A stretch of 64,000 nt of DNA from a virus (lineage: Duplodnaviria > Caudoviricetes). The stretch is from the IMG/VR virus record IMGVR_UViG_3300042554_001750. One strand, 5' to 3'. The position numbers and the translations under genes were made by a program. Positions within the stretch are counted from its first letter, which is position 1; each line of letters begins with the position of its first letter. Positions 9,194-64,000 of this stretch are shown here, piece after piece. The notes beneath the pieces are model-generated. The model saw only the letters and a list, made by a program, of their open reading frames with translations, had not been told where the DNA came from and did not search any database.

Positions 9194-9224
9194 AGTATAT
9201 AAGAAAACGGAATTATTGTCAACC
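9194..9224 (-). promoter_or_regulatory. sigma70-type early promoter
   Basis: TTGACA (9217-9222, overlapping clpP stop), 17 nt, TATACT (9194-9199). Confidence 0.8.
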
Positions 9225-9833: not shown

Positions 9834-9861
9834 ATTATACAGGAAATTTACAATATGTCAA
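9834..9861 (-). promoter_or_regulatory. sigma70-type promoter for clpP
   Basis: TTGACA (9856-9861), 16 nt, TATAAT (9834-9839). Confidence 0.65.
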
Positions 9862-11372: not shown

Positions 11373-11391
11373 AGTTAAGTATTTATGCGTT

Positions 11392-36975: not shown

Positions 36976-37615
36976 GTTTATTCTCATAATTAAAAGAGTT
37001 ATTATCACCTAAAAACCATTTAGGATTGGTTTCAACAACATACTTTTTAGTACAAACCTTAAAATCAGGGAATAATAGTTCTTTAGGATTGCTAGCAGCA
37101 TCAAAAAATATACATCTATTATTTGGTTGTGCAGCGTACTGTCCATTATCTAGTTCAATAAAATTGAAACTTTTATGATCCTCAGGCCATTCAGCATAAC
37201 TAGTATCAATAATGTTCAAATCAGGAGCACTATGATCTACGGTAAAAAGATAATTGCCCTGATAGAAATTTTTATCTTTGGCATAAAATTTACAACTCAA
37301 ATTTCTTAGAAATGCCTTTTGCATGATTGTAAAATCATAACTAAAACAATCCCAAATTTGCAATGTATCAAGGCTTAAAAATTTGGCAGGATCTAAATCT
37401 TTATTTCTACTTACAAAAGCATGAAGTGGCAACTTATCGTATAGAGCACCATATCTTGGTAGATAAGCCTCTATACGAAAAGCCTGGCTGCGTAAACTTT
37501 TGATACTCACCCAAATACAAGGTTCATACTCATCATGACCTTTTGTAAAGTCATATAAGAATTCTCTGCGTACAAAACAATGTACTGGTGGTATGTTTGC
37601 GACTAAGTGTGCCAT
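36968..37615 (-). CDS. conserved hypothetical protein
   Basis: MAHLVANIPP..LYDKLP..QIWDCF..AAQPNNR. Confidence 0.75.
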   Translation of the reverse strand: MAHLVANIPPVHCFVRREFLYDFTKGHDEYEPCIWVSIKSLRSQAFRIEAYLPRYGALYDKLPLHAFVSRNKDLDPAKFLSLDTLQIWDCFSYDFTIMQKAFLRNLSCKFYAKDKNFYQGNYLFTVDHSAPDLNIIDTSYAEWPEDHKSFNFIELDNGQYAAQPNNRCIFFDAASNPKELLFPDFKVCTKKYVVETNPKWFLGDNNSFNYENKHE

Positions 37616-38116
37616 TTAATTGAATAAGTCCTCGTTCCATTCACGGTGACCTTCACGAAAGGCCATGTTTGCTTGTGTCTCTCTAACTTCTACACGGTAG
37701 CACCATAGGCGTTCGCTTTCTCCCGGTCCCCACATGTCAGGAATGTAGACACCATTAACATACTTGTAAAGCATGTCGGCTAGACCTTCACAGCCTAAGC
37801 GTGGAAGTATAGTTAGTTTAGCCATCTTTTTTTCTTGCAACATTTTAAATGTTTCAAGTTCTGGATCATCTTGCGCTACAAGCAATGTATGGTCAAACTG
37901 ATCTTCTAGAATTTTCTTAAGTTCTTTCAATCCACCGTAATCAGCAGCCCAATTGCGAACATCAAGATTATTAGTACCAAAATAAAATTTCATACTAAAA
38001 CTATATCCATGTATCATATTGCAATGACTGTCAGCACGCCATTGACGATACGCACAGGGAAATGCGTCATGGTATTCTTTAGTACTTGTATATTTGTATG
38101 TAATTGGATTATGCAT
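37616..38116 (-). CDS. queD: 6-carboxy-5,6,7,8-tetrahydropterin synthase
   Basis: CAYRQWRADSHC..IHGY, DYGGLK, FDHTL, GCEGLA, VEVRET. Confidence 0.88.
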   Translation of the reverse strand: MHNPITYKYTSTKEYHDAFPCAYRQWRADSHCNMIHGYSFSMKFYFGTNNLDVRNWAADYGGLKELKKILEDQFDHTLLVAQDDPELETFKMLQEKKMAKLTILPRLGCEGLADMLYKYVNGVYIPDMWGPGESERLWCYRVEVRETQANMAFREGHREWNEDLFN

Positions 38117-38888: not shown

Positions 38889-39148
38889 TATACTAACTCC
38901 TCTAAGATTCCCAATAACTCAGCACCGATCAAAAAGAATCCTGCTACAAAAAATACACCACCTCCTTGAAGTAGTGCAACACCGGCGACAATTCTAAGAG
39001 CACTCTTTACAAGGCTAACATAAAAATGTCCTTTGCTGGGATCCTTGGGTTGTATATTAATCATAGGTGGATGATGAGGACAGCGTCCTTGTTGAAAATC
39101 ACAATCAGGGCTATAATCTTTTTTACAGATATCGCACTTCATCTGCAA
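38888..39148 (-). CDS. small membrane protein with CxxC
   Basis: CDICK..CQQGRCPHH; HFYVSLVKS..AELLGILEELV. Confidence 0.65.
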   Translation of the reverse strand: MQMKCDICKKDYSPDCDFQQGRCPHHPPMINIQPKDPSKGHFYVSLVKSALRIVAGVALLQGGGVFFVAGFFLIGAELLGILEELV

Positions 39149-39819
39149 CCCTTAGTTGCAATGTTTAAAAACTCTTGTCTAGCAGCAGGATCATTTTTGA
39201 AACCTCCACCGAGACGGCTAGTGACAGTTGAACTACCTGTATCCTCAACACCGCGACTCTTAACACAATAATGCTGTGCGTCAATCATAACCGCAACATC
39301 TTCTGTATCTAAGATAAACTGTAGTGTGTGGAAAATCTGTTCAGTTAACCGTTCTTGAATCTGCGGACGCTTGCTGAAATATTCTACAATCCGATTAATT
39401 TTAGATAGTCCAAGCACTTTATCCTTAGGCACATATGCAACAGTAGCGGTGCCATCAATGATAACAAAATGGTGCTCACAATTGCTTTGTACATTGACGT
39501 TCCTTTCAACGACCATTTCGTTGTACTTCATCTTGTTATCAACTGTAGTACACTTGGGGAATGCTTCATAATCAAGCCCCCAAAAGATTTCGTTTACATA
39601 CATCCGGGCAACACGTTTGGGTGTTTCTGCTAGACTGTCATCAGACAAATCTAATCCAAGCAATTCCATTATTTGCTTGAAATTAGTTTCAATGATTGAA
39701 ATCTTGGCTTTGCGATCAAGATCAACTTCCTTCATAGGAGTTTCAACACCCATTTTAACTAGATGTTCGTGAACTTTTAAACCAAGCTCAGGGTCTGTTT
39801 TTGTTTTATTGTAACTCAT
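39139..39819 (-). CDS. folE: GTP cyclohydrolase I
   Basis: ETPKRVA, SNCEHH, GLSKINR, RPQIQERLT, HYCVKSRG. Confidence 0.97.
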   Translation of the reverse strand: MSYNKTKTDPELGLKVHEHLVKMGVETPMKEVDLDRKAKISIIETNFKQIMELLGLDLSDDSLAETPKRVARMYVNEIFWGLDYEAFPKCTTVDNKMKYNEMVVERNVNVQSNCEHHFVIIDGTATVAYVPKDKVLGLSKINRIVEYFSKRPQIQERLTEQIFHTLQFILDTEDVAVMIDAQHYCVKSRGVEDTGSSTVTSRLGGGFKNDPAARQEFLNIATKGCR

Positions 39820-40340: not shown

Positions 40341-41375
40341 TCACTTTAAAAATACATCATTAATCTGACGGTTAACACGGATGAATGTGGTGCACTTACT
40401 AAGTTGTTTAAGAGTTGGTGCTCCAACATATGTGCAAGTGCTACGCAAACCTCCGAGTAAATCTAGTACAGTATTTTTTACTGCACCGCGATATTTAACT
40501 TCAACTGTGCGACCCTCACTACTGCGATAATTAGCGACACCTCCGTGATGCTTGTCCATAGCAGTATCACTACTCATGCCATAAAACACTACACGAGGAT
40601 TCTTACCATCTTCACTAATTACTTCGCCTTCGCCTTCATCATGTCCAGATAACATGCCACCCAGCATTACAAAATCAGCGCCAGCTCCGAAGGCTTTAGC
40701 GACATCCCCAGGACAAGTACAACCGCCGTCAGCAATAATGTGTCCACCAAGACCATGAGCAGCGTCCGCGCATTCAATGATTGCTGAAAGTTGTGGATAG
40801 CCAACGCCAGTTTGAATACGAGTAGTACAAACACTCCCAGGGCCAATGCCCACTTTAACAATATCGGCTCCACGTAGAATTAACTCCTGTGTCATGTCAG
40901 CCGTTACTACATTGCCTGCTATGATAGTATGCTTGGGATACAATCTACGAACATCAGCTACAAAATCACCAAAATGTTCGCTATACCCATTTGCAATATC
41001 AATACAAATAAAATGTATTGCAGGATTATCTTCTAGTATGGCTACTAATCTATTTAAGTCTTTTTCGCTAGTTCCAGTGCTTACGGCAAAATAATTGCCA
41101 CCGATATTATCAGTTAATTTAGGAAATTCATCACGACCTAGTGACTTTACTAGACAAGTAAACATCCTATGTTCGTAAAGTGCTACAGCCATAGAAGGAG
41201 TTCCTACACCATCCATGTTAGCTGCCATGACAGGGACTCCAGTCCATTCCCACCCACTATGCTTAAACTGGTATGTGCGAGTTAAATCAACTTCTTTACG
41301 GCTTGCTAGAGTACTACGCTTAGGACGAATCAATACATCCTTGAAATCTAGCTTAATATCATCTTCAATACGCAT
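40341..41375 (-). CDS. guaC: GMP reductase
   Basis: [46 protein letters not shown]. Confidence 0.96.
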
Positions 41376-41430
41376 TAACAATTGCCTCTAATAAAAACTA
41401 ACTATACAACAAAACAACTATAAAACAAAA

Positions 41431-41458: not shown

Positions 41459-43336
41459 TTACTTGACTTCTGTAGTTTCTGCGTCTACTACATTTGGTTC
41501 CGTTTTTTGTTTAGCTTGTTCTGCTTCATACTTTTTACTAGTAATGGGACCAATTGCTTGATACAGTTCGGTAACCTTTTTATTGATTTCCTCAGCATCT
41601 TCACCCTTAAGTGCTTGCTCTAAATTGTCAAGTGCTTCCTTTGCTTTATTACTTTCTTCCTCTGTTACCTGATCTTTAAATTCATTGTAATCACTACGGA
41701 AGTTATTTAAAGCACCTTCACCACTGTTCTTTGCTTGAATCAGTTCAAGTTTCTTCTTATCAGCTTCTGCATTTTCTTCAGCTTCACGAACCATCTTATC
41801 AATTTCAGCTTCAGTTAATCCAGAATTAGACTTGATTGTAATCTTGTTTTCTTTACCTGTGCCTTGATCTTTTGCACTAACATGCATGATACCGTTAGCA
41901 TCAATATCAAGTGTTACTTCAATTTGAGGTACTCCACGCTTGGCTGGGGGAATTCCTTCAAGATTAAATTCACCTAACAATTTATTGTGTTGTACAAATT
42001 CTCTTTCACCTTGATAGACTTTGACAGTAACAGCAGGTTGATTATCATCCGCAGTACTAAACACTTGACTATGCTTGGTAGGAATAGTAGTGTTCTTTTT
42101 GATAAGCTTAGTCATGACACCACCCATAGTTTCAATACCGAGACTTAGAGGTGTAACATCAAGCAATAGAACATCCTTACGGTCACCTGCTAAAACACTA
42201 CCTTGAATAGCTGCACCAGCGGCAACTGCTTCATCAGGATTAACATCCTTGCGAGGTGCCTTAGCAAACAATTTTTCAACTTCTTCTTGAACCTTAGGCA
42301 TGCGAGTCATACCGCCAACAAGAATGACTTCATCAATGTCACTTGCTGTTACATTTGCATCCTTCATCGCAATCTTGCATGGTTCAATAGAACGCTTGAT
42401 TAATTCTTCAACCAAACTTTCTAACTTAGCACGGGTGAGCTTGATGTTCATGTGCTTGGGACCACTTGCATCAGCAGTAATGTATGGAAGATTAACATCA
42501 GTTTGGCTACTGCTGGACAATTCAATCTTGGCCTTTTCAGCAGCTTCTTTCAAACGCTGTAGTGCTAATACATCCTTAGTTAGATCAACACCTTGTTCCT
42601 TTTTAAATTCAGAAACAAGATAGTCCATGATGCGTTGGTCAAAGTCTTCACCACCTAAAAATGTATCACCGTTAGTGGACAGAACTTCAATCTGTTTCTC
42701 ACCATCAATGTTTGCAATCTCAATAATAGAAACGTCAAAGGTACCACCGCCCAAGTCATAGACAGCAACCTTACGGTCTTTCTTATCAGCTTTATCTACA
42801 CCATATGCCAGTGCAGCCGCTGTTGGTTCATTGATGATACGCAATACTTCTAGACCAGCAATGCGTCCGGCATCCTTAGTTGCTTGACGCTGGCTGTCGT
42901 TGAAATATGCAGGGACAGTAATAACTGCTTGAGTGACTTCGTGACCGAGATAATCTTCTGCGGTCTTTTTCATCTTGCGCAAAACTTCGGCTGAAATTTG
43001 CGGAGGTGCAATTTCTTTACCTGAAACACGGACCCATGCGTCACCATTAGTTGCCTCATAGATTTCATATGGCATGAGGTCAATATCTTTTTGAACTGCG
43101 TTTTCTTTAAACTTACGACCAATCAAACGCTTGGCTGCATAGATAGTATTTTTGGGATTTGTTACTGCTTGTCGTTTTGCACTTGCACCAACTAAGATTT
43201 CATCGTTAGTGTATGCAATGATTGATGGGGTTGTACGTGCGCCTTCACTGTTTTCAATAACTTTTGTAGAACCGTTTTCTACAACTGCAACGCACGAATT
43301 GGTTGTACCGAGGTCAATACCTATTACTTTGCTCAT
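41459..43336 (-). CDS. dnaK: Hsp70 chaperone DnaK
   Basis: [54 protein letters not shown] linker. Confidence 0.98.
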
Positions 43337-48670: not shown

Positions 48671-51385
48671 TTAACCGAAACTAAACAAATCATCAAATGT
48701 TGAATTTGTATCTGTGTTGCTACGCAAATCCCAACCTAACACACCTAGCAAGTTTTCAATCTTTTCGTCAACTAGTGTGCGTTCCATTTCACTATCATCA
48801 AACGGCAACTCACAGAACCATTGAGGCAATCTAAGTTCGTCAGTTGGATAAGCAATACTTGTAAAGTTCAATGGATTGGGTTTAAGTTTACAAACAATAA
48901 CCTTCATTCCGTCAACAATCTTCATACTATAGTTGTCACTGTTGACACGGCGTAGATAGTTGTAGTTTAGTGCTCCTCTGACATGTCCGGGCATATTAGC
49001 ACGACCTGTTGGGCTTTTCTTTTCTAGTTCTTCGTAATATGTAAGTTTGTTTACAGACTTAGGACTACCCTTTGTCCAACTATCCTGTGCAGATAAGATC
49101 CGTTTGAAACCTTTGATAGCTTCAATTACTTCGTCACGACCCTTACCTTGTTGAATGACCATGCTCAATATATTCATTAAGAATTCTTGAACATACTTAG
49201 GAGTATCAGCCCGTTTCAAATCAAGACCCATAGCCTTGATATCACCCAGTTTGCCATCTTTATCTTTGCGCTTACCTTCTTTATCAAAGATATTGATTGC
49301 ATAACGCTTCTTAGTAATAAAGATAGTACGGTCACCAATTAATTCACGACCAGCCTTGATGATTTCACCGTTCTTGCGAGGCGCGTGAAATGCACGTTCC
49401 ATGAATGCGGGGAATGTGTCATTTGTTTGTTCAGCAATACTATCGTATAAACCTATACAAACATCCTTGTTCCATTCTAATTCATTATTATCTATTTGTG
49501 TTTTAAGAATAGGATAAGCACTAAAGTAGCATGAGTCAGTATCCCCGTATACAATTGCGGGACCATTATGATTGTATTCGCCTTCTACAATTTCATTGAT
49601 CTGGCTCATCATGTGTTTAACAATCTGACGACCACTCAATGTTACTGATTGACCAATGCGTTTATCATAGAATCGGCAATGCTCATTCAAAAGTGCGCCA
49701 TACGCAGAGTTAAGCAAAATTTTACGGACAAGCTGTCGTTTGTCGTAATATTCATACATATCAGTGCCGTATGCTTCCTTAGCTTGCTTTTGAATTGACT
49801 TCCGTTCTGTATACCAGCGTGATAACAGACCTGGAATTACACCTTCAGTATCATACCTAAAGATTGTTCCATTAGCACTAAGAATAAATGGATTGTGACT
49901 ATCAAAGATTAATTTCCATATCTCAGCAGCACTCATTTCTACGCTATCACCATTTTCATAGTCAAGTGTAAGCATAGTACCACGCTCTTGGCGCATGATT
50001 GCTTCATATTCTAATGAACCAAATAAACCTTCCCAGAGTATCGCGCCAGTTACTTCTTCATCATCGTCCTTGGCACGTTTCTTTTCACTGGCTAGCCTTC
50101 TGCCTTTATCTCGCATGTACTGGTCAGTAAGTGTTTGTCTGACTTGTCCAACGATTGTTTCGGGGGCCATGTTAAGGGCGCGAATAGCCGAGGGATAGAG
50201 CGAGTTAATGTCAACTGCACCGACCCATTCGTGGATGCCTCTTTTGGGCGTAGCAACATAGGCACCTGCCGCTTGTTGTTCATCTGTATGATTTTCCTTT
50301 CGTCGTTTATCGGGTACTACCATACCACGTTCATGAGCCTCGTTCATGATTGCCATTTCAATCATTGCAACAGACCCCATGACAGTTGGCAATAGCACAG
50401 TATTTTCATGTGCTAGTGCATTAGCTAAATCTAAAAACTTAAGTTTATTATGAATCTTAACAAGCAACATTGTATCTTGGCGATTGTATTCTACGAACCT
50501 TTTAAAGTCCTTGTTATACAATTGATCCAATGTACCTTCGTACTGTGTTTTGTTTTCACCGACTTCCATTTCACCAATGAAGTCCAATTTATAACTATGC
50601 CGACTTTCATAGTTGTACTTCTTATACAACTGCAAATAGTCCATATGAACACGACCAACTAGATCATATGTTGTTTCTTCTTTACCGAAACGCTCATAGG
50701 TTCTTGGCTTGGGAAGTTGACCAAGCAAACAAAACTTGCGTGTGTCATCCTTGCTCATAACCCTTGTTACACGGTTAACCATGTAGGGTATATCATAGCC
50801 TTCTGAGTTCCAACCAGTAAGAATATCAGCATCCTCAATCAGTTGAAAGAATGTTTCAAACATTTCTATTTCACTACGGAACAGAAGTGTGTTGGGCATA
50901 TCTTTAACTAAATCGTGTGCAGTTTCATCTGTCATGCCGCGAGGAGGGATGACAAGGGTAACTAGTTGGTCTAGCCAATCTAGGTATAGACTGATTGCAG
51001 TTACAGGATTGAAGGGATCACTTGTGGGACTAAAACCCTTTTCAGGATCAAAGTCAACCTCAATGTCAAAGAAGCATGTATGTAGCTTGGGACTTTCTAC
51101 CCCAAGATAATTTTCGCTTAGACAACGGAACACAACGTTGATATCACTTTCAAACAATTTCTTGTTTGCGTGAATCCTGCGTTCCTTTTCAAATTCACTA
51201 CGCTTGCGTGAACTGAATTTAGTTACCTTATCTCCGAAGATGCTATGATATTTGCCTTTTAAATCGCTGAAATAAAAAGTATAATTGCAAGGATATTCCT
51301 TGTAGGTTCGTTTACCTTCAGGAGTTCGTTCTACTACATAGATGCGGTCACTATCACGGTCATGGATAGCATCAATATAACTCAT
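48671..51385 (-). CDS. family B DNA polymerase (T4 gp43-like)
   Basis: FDIEV exonuclease I, WNSEGYD, YNRQD, DINSLYPS, KILLNSAYG, YGDTDS, KKRY. Confidence 0.97.
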   Translation of the reverse strand: MSYIDAIHDRDSDRIYVVERTPEGKRTYKEYPCNYTFYFSDLKGKYHSIFGDKVTKFSSRKRSEFEKERRIHANKKLFESDINVVFRCLSENYLGVESPKLHTCFFDIEVDFDPEKGFSPTSDPFNPVTAISLYLDWLDQLVTLVIPPRGMTDETAHDLVKDMPNTLLFRSEIEMFETFFQLIEDADILTGWNSEGYDIPYMVNRVTRVMSKDDTRKFCLLGQLPKPRTYERFGKEETTYDLVGRVHMDYLQLYKKYNYESRHSYKLDFIGEMEVGENKTQYEGTLDQLYNKDFKRFVEYNRQDTMLLVKIHNKLKFLDLANALAHENTVLLPTVMGSVAMIEMAIMNEAHERGMVVPDKRRKENHTDEQQAAGAYVATPKRGIHEWVGAVDINSLYPSAIRALNMAPETIVGQVRQTLTDQYMRDKGRRLASEKKRAKDDDEEVTGAILWEGLFGSLEYEAIMRQERGTMLTLDYENGDSVEMSAAEIWKLIFDSHNPFILSANGTIFRYDTEGVIPGLLSRWYTERKSIQKQAKEAYGTDMYEYYDKRQLVRKILLNSAYGALLNEHCRFYDKRIGQSVTLSGRQIVKHMMSQINEIVEGEYNHNGPAIVYGDTDSCYFSAYPILKTQIDNNELEWNKDVCIGLYDSIAEQTNDTFPAFMERAFHAPRKNGEIIKAGRELIGDRTIFITKKRYAINIFDKEGKRKDKDGKLGDIKAMGLDLKRADTPKYVQEFLMNILSMVIQQGKGRDEVIEAIKGFKRILSAQDSWTKGSPKSVNKLTYYEELEKKSPTGRANMPGHVRGALNYNYLRRVNSDNYSMKIVDGMKVIVCKLKPNPLNFTSIAYPTDELRLPQWFCELPFDDSEMERTLVDEKIENLLGVLGWDLRSNTDTNSTFDDLFSFG

Positions 51386-52296: not shown

Positions 52297-53001
52297 TTAT
52301 TGAAAGATGTGATGGTTCTGTTCGCCGTAAATCTTAATATATTTTCCAGCAAGTGCATCAGCCATTACCTCAATTGGGCTACCGGGATAACTATCACCCG
52401 GTTGAATCATATTCAATTCACCTTGGCGAACATGCACCAACTCATGGAAAACAGTTCTAAGAATATCTACAAGGTTACGGTTTTTAGCATAAACCCAAAC
52501 CTTATTGGAACCCTCAGTATGGCTACCTGTATGATGACCGTCTTGTGCTTCTTCGGTATCCATGCTAAGTTCTATTTCTGGGCGGGTTTGTAAATTCAAT
52601 CGTTTACGAGCCCAATCCGCAAACTTATTAACTTCATCCTCTAAATCACACTCAACATTTGCTTCGTCTAATTTACCTTTTATCCATTTATCTGGAGTTT
52701 CTTTATACTTTCGTTTAAATTTATTGTGTAATAACTCGCTTGTCATGTGATGGCGTTTAGCGATTTTTCTAATCAATTGATCAATAGTATTGTAATCATG
52801 CTTTGATAAGCTAGGTAACTTTTTTGCTAATTCATGTTCTGGTGATTCATACATGCTTTCGCCGCCGCCACCTCCGTCACCACCATCTGATTCGCCGGAG
52901 CCGAAACCAAAGTATCCGTAACCGGGAAAGAAATATCTACGTAAGGATTTTTTCCTAGACTTAGATTTTTTACGTTCGGTGATAAATTCAGTCGCTCTCA
53001 T
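52297..53001 (-). CDS. late tagged protein with zincin (HExxH) domain
   Basis: MRATEFITE; Gly-rich linker; VFHELVHVRQ..EVMAD. Confidence 0.75.
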   Translation of the reverse strand: MRATEFITERKKSKSRKKSLRRYFFPGYGYFGFGSGESDGGDGGGGGESMYESPEHELAKKLPSLSKHDYNTIDQLIRKIAKRHHMTSELLHNKFKRKYKETPDKWIKGKLDEANVECDLEDEVNKFADWARKRLNLQTRPEIELSMDTEEAQDGHHTGSHTEGSNKVWVYAKNRNLVDILRTVFHELVHVRQGELNMIQPGDSYPGSPIEVMADALAGKYIKIYGEQNHHIFQ

Positions 53002-53015
53002 AATAAGTATTTATC

Positions 53016-53450
53016 TTAACACCAACTCTGTTTGGCTTCACCGTAATATTCACGGGCAAAACCATTTTGAATCAGCATACTACGAAGGCTTTGTCCGTTA
53101 AGTATAATATCTCCTAGAACACGACCCCCAAACTTATCCCAATCATATAATACAACTTGGCGCTTTTGTGCGTTTGCTACTGCTTGTTTTGTAAATGCAC
53201 TTGCAGCTTGTCCACGCTGATCTTCCTGCGGGCATTTAGCACGGAATCCTTTCTCAGGTGTGTCAACCCCAAAGACACGAACTGCTAGTTCTTTCTTTAA
53301 TGGTGCTGGTAAAAAAGGTGCCTCTATGACTACAGTATCACCGTCATTTACCCTAAGAATATTAGCATCATAAGTTACACCTTGAGGTTTCTTTTGTGCA
53401 TAAGCAGTTGACATTAACGCTAATAAAACTATTGCTATTATTTTTTTCAT
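53016..53450 (-). CDS. secreted staphylococcal-nuclease family protein
   Basis: signal peptide; VNDGDTV, VRVFGVDTPE, DKFGGRVLG, GFAREY. Confidence 0.9.
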   Translation of the reverse strand: MKKIIAIVLLALMSTAYAQKKPQGVTYDANILRVNDGDTVVIEAPFLPAPLKKELAVRVFGVDTPEKGFRAKCPQEDQRGQAASAFTKQAVANAQKRQVVLYDWDKFGGRVLGDIILNGQSLRSMLIQNGFAREYYGEAKQSWC

Positions 53451-53464
53451 TCTTACTCCGTAAT

Positions 53465-53561
53465 AAAATGCTCACTTTGTAGTTTCACGGTAGCGAATCG
53501 TTACTCCTAAAGCCAGCAGCCGGCTACACCACGCAACGGATTGCGGTCCTAAGGTGGGTTC
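53465..53561 (-). ncRNA. uncharacterised structured RNA candidate
   Basis: GC-rich island in an AT-rich region; stems CGCAA/TTGCG, CACC/GGTG, AGCCGG/CTGGCT; GTAGC/GCTAC alternative pairing. Confidence 0.5.
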
Positions 53562-54668
53562 TTAAACTCTTGCTAATACAAATTGATTACCTTCAGCTTG
53601 TGGTTGATTTGCAATTTCTGGTGGTAAATCACTATATGGAATAGGCTTATACCCATATCTACCTGCGAATCTACGAATCATAGCTTGATACGCACTTGTC
53701 CTTGAGCCACCTTTACTCGCAAATAATATATAGTCCGGAACATTTATGTTTTTCAAATATTCGTTGAATGCTTTTAATACCGTAGCAAAAACTTTACCTG
53801 CATCACCTTCGCCAGTTTTTTCATATGTGCCACCTCTAGTGAAATCAAAATCAATCGCATTGATTTCTTCATGTAATGGGGTAAAGATAACTTCAATGTC
53901 ACGACCTTCACTATCATGTGCTACCGCAACATTGGCATATGTTTCATCATCTTCATACCAACTTTCAATTGGAAAAGATTTTTCAACATCAATTGATTCA
54001 TTTGTTTGTTTTTGTTGTGTTATCCATTGTCTAGCTTGTGGCTTGTTGGGCGGTGCGTTCGTAAATTTAACTAATTTTTTATAGGTATTTTGAATTTGAG
54101 ACTCGGTGCTAGCGCCATCACCACTATTGTCTATGATTGACAAATTATCAAATATCTGGGCAAATTTTCCAATATTGTTTTGAACATCATACCAGCTTTG
54201 TACTACCAATTTATCAGGTACAGTTCTTGTTCTTTGTTGATTGCGCTTTCGTGCTACTTCTAATTCTGTGTTGACAACAACAAGAAATGTATTATAACCT
54301 AATGCATCAAAGTTATTTTTTAACTTAGAAACTTTTTCATAGTCGTCGCCGGTACCGTCAATTACAAGACCCAATCTCCCGTCAATTGCTAGTTCTGATT
54401 TATCAGCAGTGATATCTTTTGCTTTTTGTCTTACAACATCACGCTTTTCTTTTTCTTCAGGTGGCATTTTAGGATCAATTGCATGTTTTTTCATTAGATA
54501 TTCAAAAGCAATATCACTATTGATGTTTACATATCCTAAAGCCTGTAACCCTAATTTTTGAGTAACATAACTTTTACCACTTCCGGGACCACCGATAATA
54601 AACACTGCTTTGAAAATAGCAGGGTCATTTACACCTTCACTGACATTAGTGAATTCTACGGCTCTCAT
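53562..54668 (-). CDS. late tagged P-loop kinase/NTPase (zeta-toxin/AAA_33-like) fused to TGEGDA module
   Basis: MRAVEFTNVSE|G; IIGGPGSGKS; NSDIAFE; LVIDGTG; ARKRNQQRTR. Confidence 0.8.
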   Translation of the reverse strand: MRAVEFTNVSEGVNDPAIFKAVFIIGGPGSGKSYVTQKLGLQALGYVNINSDIAFEYLMKKHAIDPKMPPEEKEKRDVVRQKAKDITADKSELAIDGRLGLVIDGTGDDYEKVSKLKNNFDALGYNTFLVVVNTELEVARKRNQQRTRTVPDKLVVQSWYDVQNNIGKFAQIFDNLSIIDNSGDGASTESQIQNTYKKLVKFTNAPPNKPQARQWITQQKQTNESIDVEKSFPIESWYEDDETYANVAVAHDSEGRDIEVIFTPLHEEINAIDFDFTRGGTYEKTGEGDAGKVFATVLKAFNEYLKNINVPDYILFASKGGSRTSAYQAMIRRFAGRYGYKPIPYSDLPPEIANQPQAEGNQFVLARV

Positions 54669-55111
54669 TATGCACGCTGTTTCTTAAGTATGCTACGCAA
54701 CATCCAGCCATGTTTGCCATGTGCGTCAATGCGACTTGCTATGAAATCAGCAATGCCCTGTTCGTTTTCTTGTTCAGCAATAGGAAATGCTTGTTTCCAC
54801 ATGTTTAATAATGTGGCATTGTCTTGTTGTAATTCTGCAATCATTAATTCGGCACGAGGAATTTTAGTTTGATCTGGTATTTGGCTTAGTTCAGCAAAGC
54901 GAGTAATAGAACCAGGTGTATAACTATCTAATTGACGAATTAATTCTGCTGTTTGGTCAATAGCGTTATCATATACTTCTTCGTACAAATTACCTAAAAA
55001 CTCATGGTATTGTGGGAAATCTGGACCTTCCACATTCCAATGAAAGTTTTGTGCTTTAATTACAAAAGCATAGCTTGTTGCTAATAATGTTTTAAGTGCG
55101 TCTGCTAACAT
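54668..55111 (-). CDS. dps: Dps/ferritin-like protein
   Basis: KAQNFHWNVEGPDFPQYHEFL..LYEE..D..AE.IR; HGKHGWMLRS. Confidence 0.92.
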   Translation of the reverse strand: MLADALKTLLATSYAFVIKAQNFHWNVEGPDFPQYHEFLGNLYEEVYDNAIDQTAELIRQLDSYTPGSITRFAELSQIPDQTKIPRAELMIAELQQDNATLLNMWKQAFPIAEQENEQGIADFIASRIDAHGKHGWMLRSILKKQRA

Positions 55112-55120
55112 AAATTACCT

Positions 55121-55240
55121 TTAATTATTTTTTGCAAATTCTGCTAATAAATCTCTTGCATGAGAAAAATCAATTGCCTGACAGTTGAAATCTTTCCATT
55201 CACCGCTTGCACATAACACTCTGAAATTGTATGTTTTCAT
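55121..55240 (-). CDS. 39-aa small protein (not in ORF track)
   Basis: MKTYNFRVLCASGEWKDFNCQAIDFSHARDLLAEFAKNN; TAATG coupling. Confidence 0.55.
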   Translation of the reverse strand: MKTYNFRVLCASGEWKDFNCQAIDFSHARDLLAEFAKNN

Positions 55241-55935
55241 TATTTCTTTCTACCCTGACAATGTGCTCTTTGACTGAATCCTTTTGGATTAGAACAGTTA
55301 ATGCTACGCTTGTATTTTTCAGACCACTTTTCGTTAATTTCTTCTTCGTTGGTCATTGCCATAATACGGCGTTGTCCATGGCGCTTGAACTTATCAGTTT
55401 CTTGCTCATAAGTACCGGGCATCGGTAAGCCTTTACCACCACCGGTGTGAAATTCTTGGTCTGTGCCTTCTTCTACACTTTCAGATTTGTTGCCCCAGTT
55501 GCTAGCACCTTTTTTACGGCACTTAACTAATGCGCCACTAGCATATGCAGAAGGCCATACTTTGTAACGGCTCTTTACTTTGTAGTAGCAAGCATCCTTC
55601 TTTTCATTAATCATTAATTCGCTAAACATTGCCCCACCACAATGTGGACATTTTTCTTCCATTACGCCTTCATTTGATTTTTTCTTAGTAGCAACATTGA
55701 TTGCCTTGCCACTGCGCTCTGGATTAGGATCTTCTCTGCGCTTTTTACTAGCCGCATACTTGCGACCTTTCTTACCCAATGAATGTGCTTTTGCTTGTGG
55801 TAAACATTTTGGCTTACCTTCGCTATCATCACCTCTAGCACATGCGCCACGAATCTTACCATCAGGACCAAATCTTACCCACTTCTCTTTAAACCATTTT
55901 CTAAGATTTTCAGTAATGATTTCATTTGCTCTCAT
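55240..55935 (-). CDS. late tagged modular basic/Cys-containing protein
   Basis: MRANEIITE|; modules LRKWFKEKW.., KKDACYYKVK.., KWSEKYKRSINC.. Confidence 0.8.
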   Translation of the reverse strand: MRANEIITENLRKWFKEKWVRFGPDGKIRGACARGDDSEGKPKCLPQAKAHSLGKKGRKYAASKKRREDPNPERSGKAINVATKKKSNEGVMEEKCPHCGGAMFSELMINEKKDACYYKVKSRYKVWPSAYASGALVKCRKKGASNWGNKSESVEEGTDQEFHTGGGKGLPMPGTYEQETDKFKRHGQRRIMAMTNEEEINEKWSEKYKRSINCSNPKGFSQRAHCQGRKK

Positions 55936-56341
55936 TTTGTAAGCCCTTCATGATAGCACTTTCTTTTGGTACACAATTAGGTACCATTTTGTCACCCTTC
56001 TTTTTCATACCAACTTGCTTATGGGTGTCCCAACATTTCTCATCTAATTTCTCTATTTCAGCTTGATTAGGCACATGTCTTGGCTTGTAATATCTTTGTG
56101 CTTGTCCCGCGCCACCACCAGTAGAATAAATTTGACCTTCGTCTACTTCTAATTCTTTTTTGGTTGCTTTTACAATTCCACTGAATCTTTTGTTTGCTTT
56201 AGCTATTTTTTCTTGGGACTTAGGGTCATCTACATTGCTAAATGCTTCTTTATCTAAACGGCTGGCTTCTGCACCAGCTTTCTTTTTGTAACTTGCTAAT
56301 GTTGCAGGACTTAACTCAAATAAAAATTCAGTAGATTTCAT
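55922..56341 (-). CDS. late tagged modular protein
   Basis: MKSTEFLFE|LSPATLASYKKKA; CWDTHKQVGMKKKGDKMVPNCVPKE. Confidence 0.8.
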   Translation of the reverse strand: MKSTEFLFELSPATLASYKKKAGAEASRLDKEAFSNVDDPKSQEKIAKANKRFSGIVKATKKELEVDEGQIYSTGGGAGQAQRYYKPRHVPNQAEIEKLDEKCWDTHKQVGMKKKGDKMVPNCVPKESAIMKGLQNESK

Positions 56342-56342
56342 A

Positions 56343-57152
56343 TTAGTCCTTTTTTACTTTTTCAGGTAAACCCTTATGCTTTGTGGCAGCAAAATCTTTA
56401 ACATCGCCTTTAGTCATAGATTTAGCAACGCCTTTTAGTTCTTTGCTTGCACCTTTAATTTTTGCACCCTTTTGCATAGCATGTGCCATACCAAAGAATT
56501 TCTGTTGTGCTTTACTGACTGCTTTTTCATTTACCTTTGATTCACCTACGCCTCCACCTGCAATGACACCACCTGTCATTTCTTGCATCATTTTTTCATC
56601 ATAGTATTCTTTTACTGCGTTTAGATAATCATTGGCTTTGATGAGTTTTTCTTGTACCCAACCTTCAATGCCTTCTTCTTCGCTGCGGTTTTGTAGTAAT
56701 TCATAAATTGATTTAGCATTCTTCATTGTTGCTAAAACATCGCTGCGAGCCATTTCAACTTCGTGGTCTACACGACTTTGACCATGCTGTACAAAGCCTG
56801 TTTTACGCTTCATTTTTGTTCCTGGAACAATGATTACATCATCTTCATCTAATTTAGCTTCTTCAACTTTTTTCTTATCATCCTGATGTTGTTTGATTTT
56901 TTCTTCTGTATCTTTTTTCTGCTTGTTAGACTTATCAACATTTTTTTGTAGTTTACTTAAAAAGTCTTTTTTAGCTTCAGAAATACTATTAGCGTATGGG
57001 CCTTTTTTCTTTGCCTTACCAGACATAACCTTTTCTGCTGGTTCAAGACCTTTTACATCAGGTCTTTTTTGTGTTTCGCCCATTGGTTTAGCAACAGTGG
57101 CGACTGCTCCTGCAGTTGTCATTTCATTAATGATAATTTGATTGATTTTCAT
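56343..57152 (-). CDS. late tagged modular protein
   Basis: MKINQIIINE|; DHEVEMARSD..WVQEKL..DYL; AVSKAQQKFFGMA..FAATKHKGLPEKV. Confidence 0.8.
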   Translation of the reverse strand: MKINQIIINEMTTAGAVATVAKPMGETQKRPDVKGLEPAEKVMSGKAKKKGPYANSISEAKKDFLSKLQKNVDKSNKQKKDTEEKIKQHQDDKKKVEEAKLDEDDVIIVPGTKMKRKTGFVQHGQSRVDHEVEMARSDVLATMKNAKSIYELLQNRSEEEGIEGWVQEKLIKANDYLNAVKEYYDEKMMQEMTGGVIAGGGVGESKVNEKAVSKAQQKFFGMAHAMQKGAKIKGASKELKGVAKSMTKGDVKDFAATKHKGLPEKVKKD

Positions 57153-57197
57153 AGTAAAGTTCCGAAATAATATAGTATTTATCAAAATACCATCTAA

Positions 57198-59720
57198 TCA
57201 GAACTTCCCACTGGGTTTGAGTGTTGGGGGTATTCCTGCACGACTAATCTTGTTACCGAACTTTTTAGCGTCTTTTTTCATGGTGTCGGGCTTAATATCT
57301 ACAGTTAATGCTGTTTTGAATCTTGGATCATTCTTTTCTGCGTTGCTAGGAATATATCCTGAAGCACCCTCTGCTACACCTTTATTGGTATTTTCTATTC
57401 GTTTTAATTTGTATGAATTTGATCCAGGTTCTTCTCGTTTTTGTACTGTATATCCTAAACCAGTAGCAAATCGTTGAACTAATCTGTCGTATAGTTTTGT
57501 TCTGCTACCTGTAGGATCATCTTCTTTCACTGCGGAGAAAAATAAACTTGCAGGTTTTTTCTTCTTTATAAACTGTTGTATCGCATGTAATACTGTAGCA
57601 AAGATTCTTTGAGCATCACCTTCGCCGGTTACTGCCTGACTGTTATTTCTATAGAATTCAACCATCCAATTCTTTTTATATTCATTGTTGAACATGATGC
57701 TAAGATTAGTTCCATCTGGTAACTTAGCCAATGCGTCATAGTCTCCGTAGGCACTTTTCTCCCACTTAAGTGGATAGGGTTGGTCAAAGCCTTCATCAAC
57801 TTTAGGTCTATAAGTTCTCCATCCGCCGGGCTGCACACCTACTGGACCTGATGTGTCGGGCATCTCACTAATTGCCCCGCGAAACTGTCTATCTTTTAAT
57901 CCACCATATGGATTGATAGCAGGAGTTTTCTCACCGGCGAATTGCAGTGTCTCGTCTTCCCCTAATCCTCTAACTCTGTCAAAGAAACTAGGAGTAGGTT
58001 TACCTTTTACTTCTCCATGTCTTTGATGTTGACCTGCATAGTCATAGTACTTACCTACAACATCAAATCCATGTGTAAAGAATATAGCAGCTGGTGGAAG
58101 GCTCATCCGTAACATACCCACACGCTGTTTACCTTCTGGTGCTTGTACAACTTTATTGTCACCGTGTTTTACTTTTTGAAGCCATGCATTTGGTTTGAGT
58201 CTTACTAACCATACATAAGGTTGTTCGCTAGCATAAGGCTTATCGTCTTTGAGATAATAACTTAATGGATAAAACCATAATGCTCTGCGCCCTTGTCCGG
58301 TTCCTATATAATCTACATCAAATTTAGGGTCATCAACATCAGGTGTTTGTCCAAACCCTTGTTTGGCACTGAATCCTAATTTATCACTATCCGTAAATCG
58401 TACAAAGTACTCATTGATATTACCGCCATTTTTCTTAACATCGTTGATGATTTGTTGACGAACACTAGGAACCTTTGCTTCGTTGACATTATATGTAGGA
58501 TCAACTTTCTGACGAGGGATGCCTTTAGGTTGTTTAGGATCAAATGGGTCAATATCAGTTGTAGATAGACCTGTCTTTTGTAACGCTTTAATGTATTGAT
58601 GTTCTAAATCTTCATCACCGAATGCCATGACAGTACTAGGAGGTCCCTTACCAAAGTCATGCTTGCCTAAACCCTTCATATTACTAATGTGTTGTCCTAG
58701 TTTGTACCAGTCATACACATCACTAACATCAACTCTTACTGTACCTGCCGGCATTGTTGGTTTAAACTCTGGGCCCGGAGGAGGTCCATTTGGATCATAA
58801 TCTTCGTTTGTTCCGTCAGATGGTTGCCAAACTATATCTGTAGGATTTACTTGATGCTTTTTAACTAAGAAGTTGATAGCGTTATCTAAATTGTTGTATG
58901 GTAAATTTTGTAAAATTTTAGTAAGGCTATATTTACTTAAATCTTTACCTTGCATCCGACGCAAATACAAATCAATTAATTGTTTTGGATCTTTGTATAA
59001 AATATTTTCTTCAATACTTAAATCAATACTATGCAATTTGTCACGCAATTGGTACAGTTTATCAATGTAACCCTGTGTGCGTAGTGCTTTATATGCTAAG
59101 TTTTCGGGACCAAACTCACCACCTTTATCTAAGCCTGCTTTTCTATATCGTTTAATAGTAGTAATAATGTTTTCAATTTGTTCTAGGTCTTTAGATTTTA
59201 ATGCTTTCTTAATAATATGTAGTAGTTTATCGTATTTTTGTTTGGTGATGGTTTGGTCAAAATTTGCTCTGCGTTTTGTTGGAATCTTTAGCCACTTATC
59301 TTGTAAAATGCTATACTCGCCTAAACTGACTACAGGTTCATTGCTGTCTTGTACATATAATTCAACTGGAACTCCGTGTACAGTTATGTCGTGGCTATCA
59401 TTATATAAATTCTTTTTTGCTGTGAAAAGTTCTTTGTAAACTTCATTATCGGGAAGCTTACTCATATCTACTAATATATGTAAATCTAAATCGCTATGTT
59501 TTGTGTATGTATATGCGGCGTTTGAGCCTGAAATTGTAATATCTTTTACATCTAAATCTTTTATTCCCAATTCATCAATAAAATCTTTAGCGATTAAAAT
59601 TAACTGGTTTTTTACTTCAGGATGTAATTTATTGTTCTCATCCCATAGGTTTTGATTCAATTCATCATGAAAAAAGATGGCGTCGCTTAATTTGAAAGAT
59701 TCCAGTGTTTTAATGTCCAT
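57198..59720 (-). CDS. modular polyprotein with N-terminal Pol-beta-type nucleotidyltransferase
   Basis: ISGSNAAYTY..SDLDLHIL..VELYVQD; modules bounded by EE/NE/GE/SE/DE/AE. Confidence 0.8.
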   Translation of the reverse strand: MDIKTLESFKLSDAIFFHDELNQNLWDENNKLHPEVKNQLILIAKDFIDELGIKDLDVKDITISGSNAAYTYTKHSDLDLHILVDMSKLPDNEVYKELFTAKKNLYNDSHDITVHGVPVELYVQDSNEPVVSLGEYSILQDKWLKIPTKRRANFDQTITKQKYDKLLHIIKKALKSKDLEQIENIITTIKRYRKAGLDKGGEFGPENLAYKALRTQGYIDKLYQLRDKLHSIDLSIEENILYKDPKQLIDLYLRRMQGKDLSKYSLTKILQNLPYNNLDNAINFLVKKHQVNPTDIVWQPSDGTNEDYDPNGPPPGPEFKPTMPAGTVRVDVSDVYDWYKLGQHISNMKGLGKHDFGKGPPSTVMAFGDEDLEHQYIKALQKTGLSTTDIDPFDPKQPKGIPRQKVDPTYNVNEAKVPSVRQQIINDVKKNGGNINEYFVRFTDSDKLGFSAKQGFGQTPDVDDPKFDVDYIGTGQGRRALWFYPLSYYLKDDKPYASEQPYVWLVRLKPNAWLQKVKHGDNKVVQAPEGKQRVGMLRMSLPPAAIFFTHGFDVVGKYYDYAGQHQRHGEVKGKPTPSFFDRVRGLGEDETLQFAGEKTPAINPYGGLKDRQFRGAISEMPDTSGPVGVQPGGWRTYRPKVDEGFDQPYPLKWEKSAYGDYDALAKLPDGTNLSIMFNNEYKKNWMVEFYRNNSQAVTGEGDAQRIFATVLHAIQQFIKKKKPASLFFSAVKEDDPTGSRTKLYDRLVQRFATGLGYTVQKREEPGSNSYKLKRIENTNKGVAEGASGYIPSNAEKNDPRFKTALTVDIKPDTMKKDAKKFGNKISRAGIPPTLKPSGKF

Positions 59721-59730
59721 AAAGTATTTA

Positions 59731-59826
59731 TTACTTTTTTGGATCTTTGTTTTCTTTGACGGGGACTGGAATAGGATTTGGTCTGTATGGAGGATTTTTT
59801 GGAGGTCTATGTCTAAACCAACTCAT
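59731..59826 (-). CDS. 31-aa Pro-rich peptide (not in ORF track)
   Basis: MSWFRHRPPKNPPYRPNPIPVPVKENKDPKK; ATAAATA 5 nt upstream. Confidence 0.5.
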   Translation of the reverse strand: MSWFRHRPPKNPPYRPNPIPVPVKENKDPKK

Positions 59827-60818: not shown

Positions 60819-61865
60819 TTATTTTTCTTCTAGATAATCTAGATTTTCACTTTCAGTTATAGCAGCGATGCCCACGCCTACCCCTGCACTTGCTAATGTG
60901 TATTTGATTGTATCTTTCCAATTTTTACCATTAATGCGTGACACTAATGTTGGAATAACAGTATTAAGTATTCCTTGTAGTGCTAGATTAGTCTGTTGTG
61001 GATTTAGTCCCATACTTTGTGCAGAATTTAACACACCACCTGCTAATAATGCACCGACTGTTGTAATAATGCCACCTTGCAAGTATGGGTTCTCTTTGCC
61101 CTTTTTAAGTATGTCTAGTACTTTTCTTCTGATCGTAGGATCATCAGTCTTACTTAATAATTCACGTGCCTGATCAACATAATCAGGCACTTTTTCTTTT
61201 TGTACATCAGCTATAACTGGCTTATAGAAATCAATTACTGCGTTCGCTACTGGACTTGTTTCTTTATCTTCCGCCACATCTTGTGCGCCCATAACCTGAT
61301 CAAACATACCAACAACTGTTTGTGCTAATTTAGGATTCTTTTGTGCAGCAGGATACAAACTCATAACAAGTGCTGTCTTGCGTTTGTCATTCAATGTAGG
61401 CCATGCCTTGCGAATTTCTGTAGCACTCTTGATGCCGGGTCCAAATGTCACAGTGGGTAAATATGCCATGTAAGCATGTTTACTAAATGGTTGTAAATCT
61501 TTTCCTGTATATGGTTGAAAGTAAGCTGGGCTACCATCTTTCTTTGTTCCGCCAGGCTGTGGAGCTTCATTTCTATCTTTTTCACTGCGAACAAATATTA
61601 GTACATCTTCGTCGGGATTATAATTGCTTGTGATTTCTTTTGCCTGAAATGGACTCTTAACTTGAACAAATCTTCCTGGTGCTACACCTGCTAACTTAGC
61701 TAATTTTTCTTTTAGTGCGAAGGGAAAAGGTCTTTCGCTTTGATCGTTTGTAGCAGCTACATATACATCAGCATTTGGAAATGCTTTTAATGCAGACTGG
61801 TATAACGCATAGTGTCCTGCGTGAAATGGATGAAACCCACCTGGCATTATAACAATCTGTTTCAT
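60819..61865 (-). CDS. HxGH nucleotidyltransferase-superfamily protein with C-terminal extension
   Basis: PGGFHPFHAGH; SATEIR. Confidence 0.8.
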   Translation of the reverse strand: MKQIVIMPGGFHPFHAGHYALYQSALKAFPNADVYVAATNDQSERPFPFALKEKLAKLAGVAPGRFVQVKSPFQAKEITSNYNPDEDVLIFVRSEKDRNEAPQPGGTKKDGSPAYFQPYTGKDLQPFSKHAYMAYLPTVTFGPGIKSATEIRKAWPTLNDKRKTALVMSLYPAAQKNPKLAQTVVGMFDQVMGAQDVAEDKETSPVANAVIDFYKPVIADVQKEKVPDYVDQARELLSKTDDPTIRRKVLDILKKGKENPYLQGGIITTVGALLAGGVLNSAQSMGLNPQQTNLALQGILNTVIPTLVSRINGKNWKDTIKYTLASAGVGVGIAAITESENLDYLEEK

Positions 61866-62453: not shown

Positions 62454-63173
62454 TTATTCTGTATCTGGTCGCTTTTCTAGTTTGTACTTTCTTCCCAAAA
62501 GATCACCGTGCATTATGGCTAGATAACTAAGTGTGGATTCATCGTCATAATCAATGAAATACGCAGAGCTTAGGTAAAAGCTTTTCCATCTACTTATGTT
62601 ATCTAATCCAAATAACCACTTTTCCAATGCCCTGCTTGGATTTAAGCTTTTATTGTTTGAAAGTAGACTTCCCAAATCATTATAGATACTGTTCTCAATT
62701 CTTTTGGATTTAAGATAAACGCGGTACTTATGTGGGGGATCACCTACAAAATACTTAGTCCCCTTGTATTCAGCACAAACAGCTTCTGTAAAGTCTACAT
62801 TATTAGCCCAAGTTTTTATATCTTGCAAAAACTGTAAATCATTACTAAATATCGCGGCTGTTTCACCCTCAATTCTTATGGAAGCATTTTTATTTTTCTT
62901 AAGATTGTTTTTAAGATCAATAAATTTTTCCATAGTGGGTGACATGTTAAGCATTTCTACTTTTTCTTGAGGGGTATAAGTACGACTCCATGTTTTACCA
63001 TTCCTTACTTTGTCTCGCCACTCGTCAATGGTTTTGACCCAATAAGTAAATCTAACTCCAGGTAATACAACCCTGGCTCGGTACTTAAATTTATTAAAAT
63101 AATCCATGTCTCGGTATTCATAATAATGAATACCGGGCACGTTATCAACTGACCTCAATAATCCCATCTTCAT
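62454..63173 (-). CDS. hypothetical protein
   Basis: ORF track; overlaps clpA end. Confidence 0.65.
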
Positions 63174-64000
63174 TCACCTTCGCTGTCATTTTATTACTTA
63201 CAACGAATTCTACAGTATCGTTAGCAAGATTAACAACAATATTGGCATTTTTGATTTGTTCAAAGAGAATTTTCTTACTCAATGGAACACGAATCAATTC
63301 GTCAATTTTTCTTGCTAACGGACGAGCGCCCATCTTTTTGTCATATCCTTTATCAGCGAGGTACTCAACAACTGATTCGGTAAGAGTCAAGGTAATGTTA
63401 TGCTTTTCAACTAAGGACTTCTTAAGGTCTTCAGTAAACTTAATAACAATCTTCTTAATAGAAAGCATATCCAACTTGTTAAACTTACAAACCAAATCAA
63501 GACGGTTTCTGAATTCAGGCTTGAAGAATTCTTTCAATGCTTTGTCATCTTCACCAATTTTATCTTGGCTACCAAAACCAATATTCAACCGTTCACCATC
63601 GGCACTACCCAAATTACTGGTCATGATAATGATAGTATTCTTGCAACTGACCTTTTTACCATTACTCCCTGTGATAGTACCTTCATCAAGCATTTGTAAG
63701 AAGATGTTAAAGATATCAGGGTGCGCCTTCTCAACTTCGTCAAACAGCATGATAGCATGTGGATTCTTGCTCAAGTCTGAAATCAAACGACCACCTTGAA
63801 CTTGACTGTCTCCGAAGCCAACATAGCCAGGAGGAGGTCCGATCAATGAACTGACAGAGTGCTTTTCGCTGTATTCTGACATATCATACTTGAGCAACGG
63901 CATGTCAAGATTTTTACCCAACAACTTTGCAAGTTCAGTTTTACCTGTACCCGTTGGGCCCAAGAACAAGAAGCTTGCAGTAGGCTTAGTGTCATTACCG
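63145..64000 (-). CDS. clpA: ClpA-like AAA+ ATPase, C-terminal part (5' outside window)
   Basis: [66 protein letters not shown]. Confidence 0.93.

Follow-up and report, generated by a model that had tools for sequence, protein, structure and literature searches.

The 64,000-nt stretch of viral DNA analysed here (the window; IMG/VR record IMGVR_UViG_3300042554_001750) carries a cluster of eight consecutive minus-strand genes at 52297-59720. Five of them, all within 52297-57152, encode proteins that begin with a leader of 9-11 residues resembling the capsid-targeting sequence (CTS) of bacteriophage T4. We consider it probable that the cluster specifies late-expressed cargo precursors, which would be tagged into the phage head, cut apart there by the head protease and injected with the DNA. 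The argument draws on features read from sequence: the N-terminal tag, conserved junctions between protein modules, the shuffling of these modules, a protease gene and capsid-propeptide sites in relatives, and late-promoter-like boxes.

The source is an uncultured giant phage of the T4 superfamily with a Rak2/Atu_ph07-like DNA polymerase; this family-B enzyme, encoded at 48671-51385, is 42-48% identical to those of Rak2-, GAP32-, CBB-, XaC1- and Atu_ph07/Phosso-like jumbo myoviruses. The sequence record to which the window belongs is 108 kb long and rated 31% complete, and a megablast of the region against isolated phages returned nothing beyond 50-nt matches to cyanophages. About 260 related loci were gathered from viral metagenome contigs, using four of the cluster's proteins as queries. 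Three complete relatives, with genomes of 524, 364 and 357 kb, carry homologous tagged genes.

The N-terminal tag

The cluster tags have the form M-[RK]-x-x-[EQ]-[FI]-[ILV]-x-E. All the N-termini quoted in an earlier reading of the window (the original prediction) are present, namely MRATEFITE (starting at 53001, minus strand), MRAVEFTNVSE (54668, minus), MRANEIITE (55935, minus), MKSTEFLFE (56341, minus) and MKINQIIINE (57152, minus) in the cluster, and MKFIELME (31182, plus) and MRDLLNILDTISE (11372, minus) beyond it. The T4-type tag is seen on five cluster proteins and on at least two elsewhere in the window; a regular expression for it, run over all open reading frames (ORFs) of at least 40 aa in the 108-kb record, gave eight matches, five of them within the cluster. 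The claim of one tagged family stands for these five proteins and fails for p840, which starts MDIKTLESF and so departs from the canonical form.

A tag rule was set beforehand from T4, requiring Glu at residue 8-13 with L, I, V, F or M at P3, two residues before that Glu. It was satisfied by 163 of the 299 distinct N-termini among homologues of six cluster proteins (54.5%). In control families drawn from these loci (nuclease, Dps, polymerase, PP-loop ATPase and two neighbours) 9 of 226 N-termini (4%) satisfied it, and internal Met positions did so in 10-16% of cases. The tag pattern is far above chance. The logo of the 163 homologue tags reads M-[RK]-x-x-[EQD]-[FI]-[ILV]-x-E followed by S/A/T/G, with a modal length of 9, and similar leaders precede zincin, kinase, DUF6934, ADP-ribosyltransferase (ART)-fold, DUF3008 and several mini-modules among the relatives. 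The T4 CTS has been experimentally defined as MKTYQEFIAE (PMC8442874), and its core E-F-I-x-E is therefore identical in MRATEFITE. The head protease of T4 cleaves this leader off, and foreign proteins fused to it are brought into heads (PMC8442874, PMC9026906). These results support the tag as a conserved N-terminal label that is independent of protein family and nearly identical in form to the T4 CTS.

A second recurrent leader, M-S-[NS]-I-[LI]-K-G-L-x-E, is found at the N-terminus of some 20 distinct p231 and p139 homologues from relatives. A vestige of this second class, SAIMKGLQNE (55931-55960, minus strand), forms the in-frame end of p139 immediately ahead of the stop codon and shares sequence with the beginning of p231, as if a fusion or fission at a tag had left a scar. 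For p840, a short Alt-like leader may be considered: relatives begin M-N-[IL]-x-E-L, but the window copy has Thr there and the segment belongs to a conserved nucleotidyltransferase domain.

Internal junctions and module shuffling

Modules that are internal in this cluster are found elsewhere as free-standing tagged genes. When the first mature residue of each tagged protein was projected onto its internal homologues, 381 distinct internal sites were mapped, with Glu exactly at P1, immediately before the junction, in 225 (59%). At offsets 1 to 8 from the junction Glu was present at 2-23% (9-23% at neighbouring offsets in the set of 381), the overall Glu frequency being 7.7%. Removal of possible mis-called starts left 277 sites, 58% of them with Glu at P1. 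P3 was L, V, I or M at 175 of the 225 Glu-P1 sites (78%). At least ten module families had Glu at P1 in 100% of cases, and most of the low-scoring junction clusters look like register slips of a few residues.

The ART-fold module provided a replicate in a separate large protein database, where p840 residues 415-643 as query gave 401 matches, mostly of about 183 aa. Among the best 120, which were examined, the module start could be located in 84, and [ILVF]-x-E preceded it in 84/84; the leader was 8-10 residues long in 82/84, and 74 distinct tags were represented. Where the module is fused downstream to other sequence, G-L-D-E, V-T-E or G-L-G-E follows its end.

The module boundaries listed in the original prediction were likewise recovered (SNE/G, INE/K and VEE/G in p231, VDE/G in both p139 and p840, VNE/A and VAE/G in p840; the slash marks the junction), and they are conserved between homologues, as scored among those less than 90% identical. 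In p234, E52 is conserved at 1.0 (n = 48) and matches the mature start of 24 distinct tagged free-standing homologues. E414 (1.0, n = 50) and E643 (0.91) of p840 coincide with mature N-termini of free-standing tagged homologues, and its other junction Glu residues score 1.0 (E588, E597 and E619) and 0.81 (E784). Conservation in p231 is 1.0 for E9, 0.93 for E111 and 0.98 for E202, the last also backed by free-standing tagged homologues. E101 of p139 (0.94) maps onto tagged genes beginning MRY[RT]EILE and then ACW; in p368, E11 is conserved at 1.0 and E224 maps onto tagged free-standing homologues; E10, E59, E98 and E103 of p269 are conserved at 0.79-1.0.

The same modules recur in different contexts. 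The zincin is free-standing and tagged in about 30 loci, and elsewhere lies behind a basic/Gly peptide, behind a deaminase, or within nucleotidyltransferase polyproteins of 1475 and 1933 aa. Kinases of the p368 type are internal in relatives' polyproteins of 1135 and 1214 aa, where they follow LTE/G or LNE/G, and of 1092 aa. In a 1261-aa relative the linker GVAE/G is repeated eight times; the window has one such site, at p840 E784. Taken together, the data support conserved hydrophobic-x-Glu sites at module borders that match the tag end of free-standing genes exactly, and a shuffling by which modules turn up both as single-module genes and as parts of polyproteins that reach 1933 aa, much as the original prediction had proposed for the tagged domains.

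Two further arrangements were noted. In relatives L068, L070 and L074 a cytidine/deoxycytidylate-deaminase-like domain (HAE...PC..C) precedes the zincin within one fused protein of 293 aa, which begins MRISDF. In the window, p348 (60819-61865), a cytidylyltransferase/NMNAT-like protein, has a hydrophobic C-terminal region and a DVAE/D site. Its N-terminal domain heads the kinase-containing polyproteins of 1135 and 1214 aa in relatives L014 and L016, and the cargo cluster may therefore reach 61865.

Head protease and capsid sites in relatives

A Peptidase_S77 protein, of the T4 gp21 family, is encoded by 3/3 of the complete relatives carrying homologous tagged genes. Beside the S77 gene, relatives encode a scaffold protein starting MLDAIKPLLE/S and an acidic core protein with LIINE/N. 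Within some 45 residues, the capsid propeptide of relatives L260-L262 contains four conserved sites of the types L-L-E, I-L-E and L-A-E, the last of which directly precedes the conserved mature domain; this suggests cleavage of the propeptide into a number of short fragments. Cleavage by gp21 of T4 follows Glu residues, and the enzyme takes the CTS off the internal proteins and also trims Alt (PMC9026906); the related protease of the giant phage SPN3US cuts after A-x-E (PMC10052503). Judged from the genes and their motifs, the relatives' layout of protease, scaffold, core and capsid sites is the T4 arrangement, and processing of the cluster proteins by the head protease would be the simplest reading.

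Late-promoter-like boxes

The T4-late-promoter-like box ATAAATACT occurs in 7 copies in the window, where 1.24 are expected. On the minus strand, copies lie at 59723-59731, 2 nt upstream of p840; at 57174-57182, upstream of p269; and at 53006-53014, 4 nt upstream of p234. A further copy at 11378-11386 is just upstream of p504, and a GATAAATAAT box lies 63 nt upstream of p466. The start of p269 is placed at ATG 57152, because homologues begin MKI[NT]QI..E and the promoter-like box falls inside the longer TTG frame. In the complete relatives L097 and L098 this ATAAATA box is also present ahead of the head-core operon. The cluster genes are probably expressed late.

Modules of the cluster

All features of the cluster lie on the minus strand. 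p234 (52297-53001) comprises the tag (52975-53001), a basic Tyr/Phe/Gly-rich peptide of 43 residues (residues 10-52, 52846-52974) and a minimal zincin with the motif HExxH...GSPxE (residues 53-234, 52300-52845), in which H186, E187, H190 and E211 are invariant. In the AlphaFold2 (AF2) model residues 11-47 are disordered and residues 3-8 form a short helix. Foldseek against the PDB related the zincin to Wss1, minigluzincins, IrrE/PprI and SPRTN, all weak matches (probability ≤0.97, E ≥0.2). Pfam and PDB sequence searches returned no match for the zincin module, for p840 residues 239-414 and 415-643, or for p139.

p368 (53562-54668) carries its tag at 54636-54668, followed by a P-loop kinase (residues 12-224, 53997-54635; Zeta_toxin 7.6e-13, AAA_33 4.8e-12) and a DUF6934-like module (residues 225-368, 53565-53996); a profile of the DUF6934-like modules had no meaningful match among PDB sequences, and a GNAT-like nature of these modules would be a guess.

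The multi-module protein p840 (57198-59720) opens with a Pol-beta nucleotidyltransferase (residues 1-238, 59007-59720; phrog_36119 and weak Pfam matches) and continues with a module of no assigned family (residues 239-414, 58479-59006), a 174-residue putative ART-fold module (residues 415-588, 57957-58478), three short peptides (residues 589-643, 57792-57956), a DUF6934 module (residues 644-784, 57369-57791; Pfam/PHROG) and a basic C-terminal module (residues 785-840, 57201-57368). At least two unrelated effector-type domains are present per chain in both p840 (nucleotidyltransferase, ART-fold, DUF6934 and others) and p368 (kinase and DUF6934-like).

The ART fold is predicted from an AF2 model with a predicted local distance difference test (pLDDT) score of 83.9. 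Nearly all of 50 VIA matches were ARTs, but with Z scores of 5.3-2.8; the top matches, ParT, MbcT, diphtheria toxin, exotoxin A and PARPs, were modest (Z 5.3-4.0; root-mean-square deviation 3.4-4.2 Å over 102-113 residues). Foldseek gave weak matches (E ≥0.06). Invariant residues of the module include R27, S37, Y70, R119, R124, H151 and H154, and the homologue alignment has no invariant Glu within the module, such as a canonical R-S-E or H-Y-E/D catalytic triad would include. The model lends modest support to p840 residues 415-588 being a newly recognised, divergent ART-fold module.

Three tagged proteins are built from smaller units. p231 (55240-55935; tag 55909-55935) is a chain of small, mostly very basic, Cys-containing modules (phrog_727 and others), with net charges of +15 over residues 10-89, +7 over residues 112-156 and +8 over residues 203-231. 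p139 (55922-56341; tag 56315-56341) has two segments after its tag, and includes a basic Cys-Trp...Cys mini-module of 26 aa (residues 102-127, 55961-56038). p269 (56343-57152; tag 57123-57152) combines basic segments with a C-terminal DUF3008 module (residues 210-269, 56346-56525; Pfam E=2.5e-8), a family for which our literature search found no paper. Several individual modules of p231, p139 and p269 are thus very basic (net charge +15 in 80 aa, +8 in 29 aa, +11 in 60 aa), and paired Cys residues occur in several. Cultured T4-like cyanophages carry homologues of p231 (T4-GC 119) within the structural module, flanked by gp15 and gp16, the small terminase gene; in these homologues, too, each module is immediately preceded by Glu.

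The two remaining genes are untagged. A staphylococcal-nuclease-like gene (53016-53450; SNase 1.2e-10, phrog_452) encodes a signal peptide that all its homologues in relatives keep; because it is untagged and this peptide is retained, its product is better read as a secreted or periplasmic phage nuclease than as head cargo. The other is a Dps/ferritin-like gene (54668-55111; Ferritin 2e-18), which at its end shares sequence with the start codon of p368, the gene of the tagged kinase. Beyond the cluster, p466 (31182-32582, plus strand) joins its tag to a GP88 domain (E=4.6e-26), and p504 (9858-11372, minus strand), for which no family was found, has Ala directly after its tag-like N-terminus.

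The cargo list of the original prediction thus holds for the zincin, the kinase and the Pol-beta nucleotidyltransferase; the nuclease drops out, being secreted and untagged, and the GP88 domain sits at 31182-32582, not within 52297-59720. Its suggestion of counter-defence against modification-dependent nucleases, offered for a phage with modified DNA, gained no specific support, with no module linked to any nuclease inhibitor. Elsewhere in the window are an FAD oxidoreductase (35806-37008), a QueD/PTPS-like gene (37616-38116), FolE (39139-39819), a GMP-reductase/IMPDH-like gene (40341-41381) and a full DnaK (41459-43336); this set is consistent with a 7-deazaguanine pathway. A ClpP-like protein (9219-9809) and, at the window edge, a ClpB/AAA_2-type ATPase fragment (63145-63969) are also encoded.

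Proposed mechanism and alternative explanations

In the mechanism that we propose, the cluster genes would be transcribed late, and the tag of about nine residues would bind the scaffolding core, so that each protein is built into the prohead. After the shell has closed around the cargo precursors, the S77 protease would strip the tag and cut each hydrophobic-x-Glu joint. The predicted products are enzymes (zincin, zeta-like kinase, Pol-beta nucleotidyltransferase, ART-fold module and DUF6934) together with small, strongly basic, Cys-containing peptides. As with IPI-III and Alt of T4, these would stay in the head with the DNA and then pass into the host on infection. Packaging, cleavage, ejection and a role of the cargo in the host are what we infer by analogy with T4. 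Modules could be freely fused, split and swapped, because one signal serves both as tag end and as linker. We put at about even chances the broader proposition that one short signal serves as capsid address, protease site and recombination joint at once, so that any module gaining a tag, or inserted after a hydrophobic-x-Glu linker, would turn into head cargo; giant T4-type phages would then have an open, rapidly reshuffled library of injected enzymes and DNA-binding mini-peptides that is freed by the head-maturation protease rather than by embedded peptidases.

Several observations weigh against this proposal. No protease or head genes were found in the incomplete 108-kb record, and for that reason the protease of this phage is taken from its relatives. 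The cluster adjoins replication genes, not a head module, and it is interrupted by two untagged genes, that of the secreted nuclease and that of the Dps/ferritin-like protein, which lies in the putative late cargo operon. The proposal does not account for the loading of p840, which lacks a canonical tag. A loose tag definition has a background of about 10% among ORFs and is no gene-finder by itself, because it flags unrelated proteins such as the ClpP-like one through its N-terminus. Not every Glu that fits the motif can be cuttable, because some lie inside folded domains, the HExxH Glu among them. The ‘structural protein’ labels on the cyanophage homologues are annotation only, and the virion-proteomics literature on homologues (cyanophages S-CREM1 and S-B43, Rak2-like CBB) gave no usable evidence and no paper placing a homologue in the virion.

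Three other explanations were weighed. The proteins might be loaded and cut, but mainly for assembly or DNA packing, as core or scaffold accessories and basic counter-ion peptides rather than injected effectors. The composition of p231, p139 and p269, chains of tiny, highly basic modules without enzyme signatures, would fit this, as would the position of p231 homologues among cyanophage head and neck genes and the precedent of T4 gp22, gp67 and gp68, whose small cleavage peptides for the most part exit from the head (PMC9026906). This explanation leaves the same tag on kinase, nucleotidyltransferase, ART-fold and zincin modules unaccounted for, and T4 Alt, itself an ART, is a packaged and injected enzyme (PMC9026906, PMC5512222); we regard it as unlikely. 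Alternatively, the chains could be classic polyvalent proteins, freed by a zincin, either embedded or encoded alongside (here p234), or by a protease of the host, maybe only after injection, with the prohead protease uninvolved. Their known repertoire, for which MPTase autoproteolysis has been proposed, includes zincin, ART-like, Pol-beta nucleotidyltransferase and zeta-like kinase domains (PMC5512222), and a zincin with an invariant HExxH...E is part of both the cluster and the relatives' polyproteins. Yet the junction motif is exactly that of the T4-type prohead protease and is common to the relatives' capsid propeptide and scaffold, the N-terminal tag matches the experimentally defined T4 CTS, and a zincin is missing from the chain in the majority of tagged proteins and polyproteins. 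Nor did any PolyVal family (e.g. MPTase-PolyVal, ART-PolyVal) give a Pfam match at E ≤1, ART-PolyVal appearing just as a weak language-model lead (score 0.85). Release by a zincin or host protease therefore receives a low probability from us.

A third possibility dispenses with processing altogether: the N-terminus would be a structural or expression element, such as an N-terminal helix or a start-region preference, and the border Glu residues would come from acidic linkers. The short helix at residues 3-8 of the p234 model is compatible with this, and positions flanking the junctions are somewhat Glu-rich (13-23% at some offsets). Against it, the Glu peak is sharp at a single position (58-59%) and accompanied by a hydrophobic P3 rather than diffuse, the tag end equals the internal border to the residue in at least ten unrelated module families, and control families from the same loci are without the tag. 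We judge this explanation to be highly improbable, and continue to favour tagged cargo precursors that are cut apart in the head and injected.

Comparison with known systems

The closest parallels are the T4 internal proteins IPI-III and Alt. In both systems a leader of about ten residues ends in hydrophobic-x-Glu (MKTYQEFIAE in T4; MRATEFITE and MRANEIITE here), diverse, fast-evolving cargo follows a conserved tag, many products are basic, and a gp21-type protease is present, here in the relatives. The ART-fold cargo parallels Alt, and the CTS has been suggested to let T4-like phages incorporate various proteins into their capsids (PMC9026906). Whereas T4 internal proteins are single modules cut once, several of the precursors described here, known from genes alone, consist of 2 to about 7 modules in a row, every joint bearing a site. 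In addition, the genes lie beside replication genes, and one large member, p840, is untagged. The names IPI, IPII, IPIII and Alt were not returned by Pfam and PHROG scans of the modules, no direct comparison having been made.

Polyvalent proteins of phages and conjugative elements, for which Iyer, Burroughs, Anand, de Souza and Aravind (2017) predicted packaging in the head and delivery along with the DNA, were likened by these authors to viral polyproteins, with release by an embedded zincin proposed (PMC5512222). The likeness lies in the stringing of unrelated conflict-type domains (zincin, ART, Pol-beta nucleotidyltransferase, zeta-like kinase) in one polypeptide. The present system differs in that many members are single modules or tiny peptides. 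Its putative zincin, with weak fold matches, is a separate gene here and is embedded in polyproteins among relatives. We found no mention of a targeting tag or of head-protease sites at domain borders in the polyvalent-protein paper (PMC5512222).

In SPN3US, with its protease gp245, and other phiKZ-like giant phages, a Glu-specific S77-type protease (x-x-E) likewise processes many head and ejected proteins, and long propeptides are cut at several sites (PMC10052503). There, however, the cuts remove propeptides from single mature proteins, and the motif is A-x-E, not L/I/V-x-E (PMC10052503); enzyme polyproteins freed as separate products are not described for these phages. A literature search on prohead proteases and polyproteins found just the polyvalent-protein paper and no description of the combination.

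If the proposed mechanism is correct, it would explain how one cheap signal can bring a wide range of enzymes into the capsids of large T4-type phages. The injected proteome of uncultured phages would become predictable from genomes, with exact peptide predictions for proteomics, and nature's own tags and linkers could serve to bring foreign proteins into phage heads. Candidate factors for the first minute of infection, of interest in relation to bacterial defence systems, would be DUF6934, DUF3008, the basic Cys mini-modules and the divergent ART-fold domain. ‘Polyvalent’ proteins would in this case be taken apart by the head protease at sites that can be read from sequence, a phage counterpart of viral polyprotein processing that would link the internal proteins of T4 with the polyvalent proteins.

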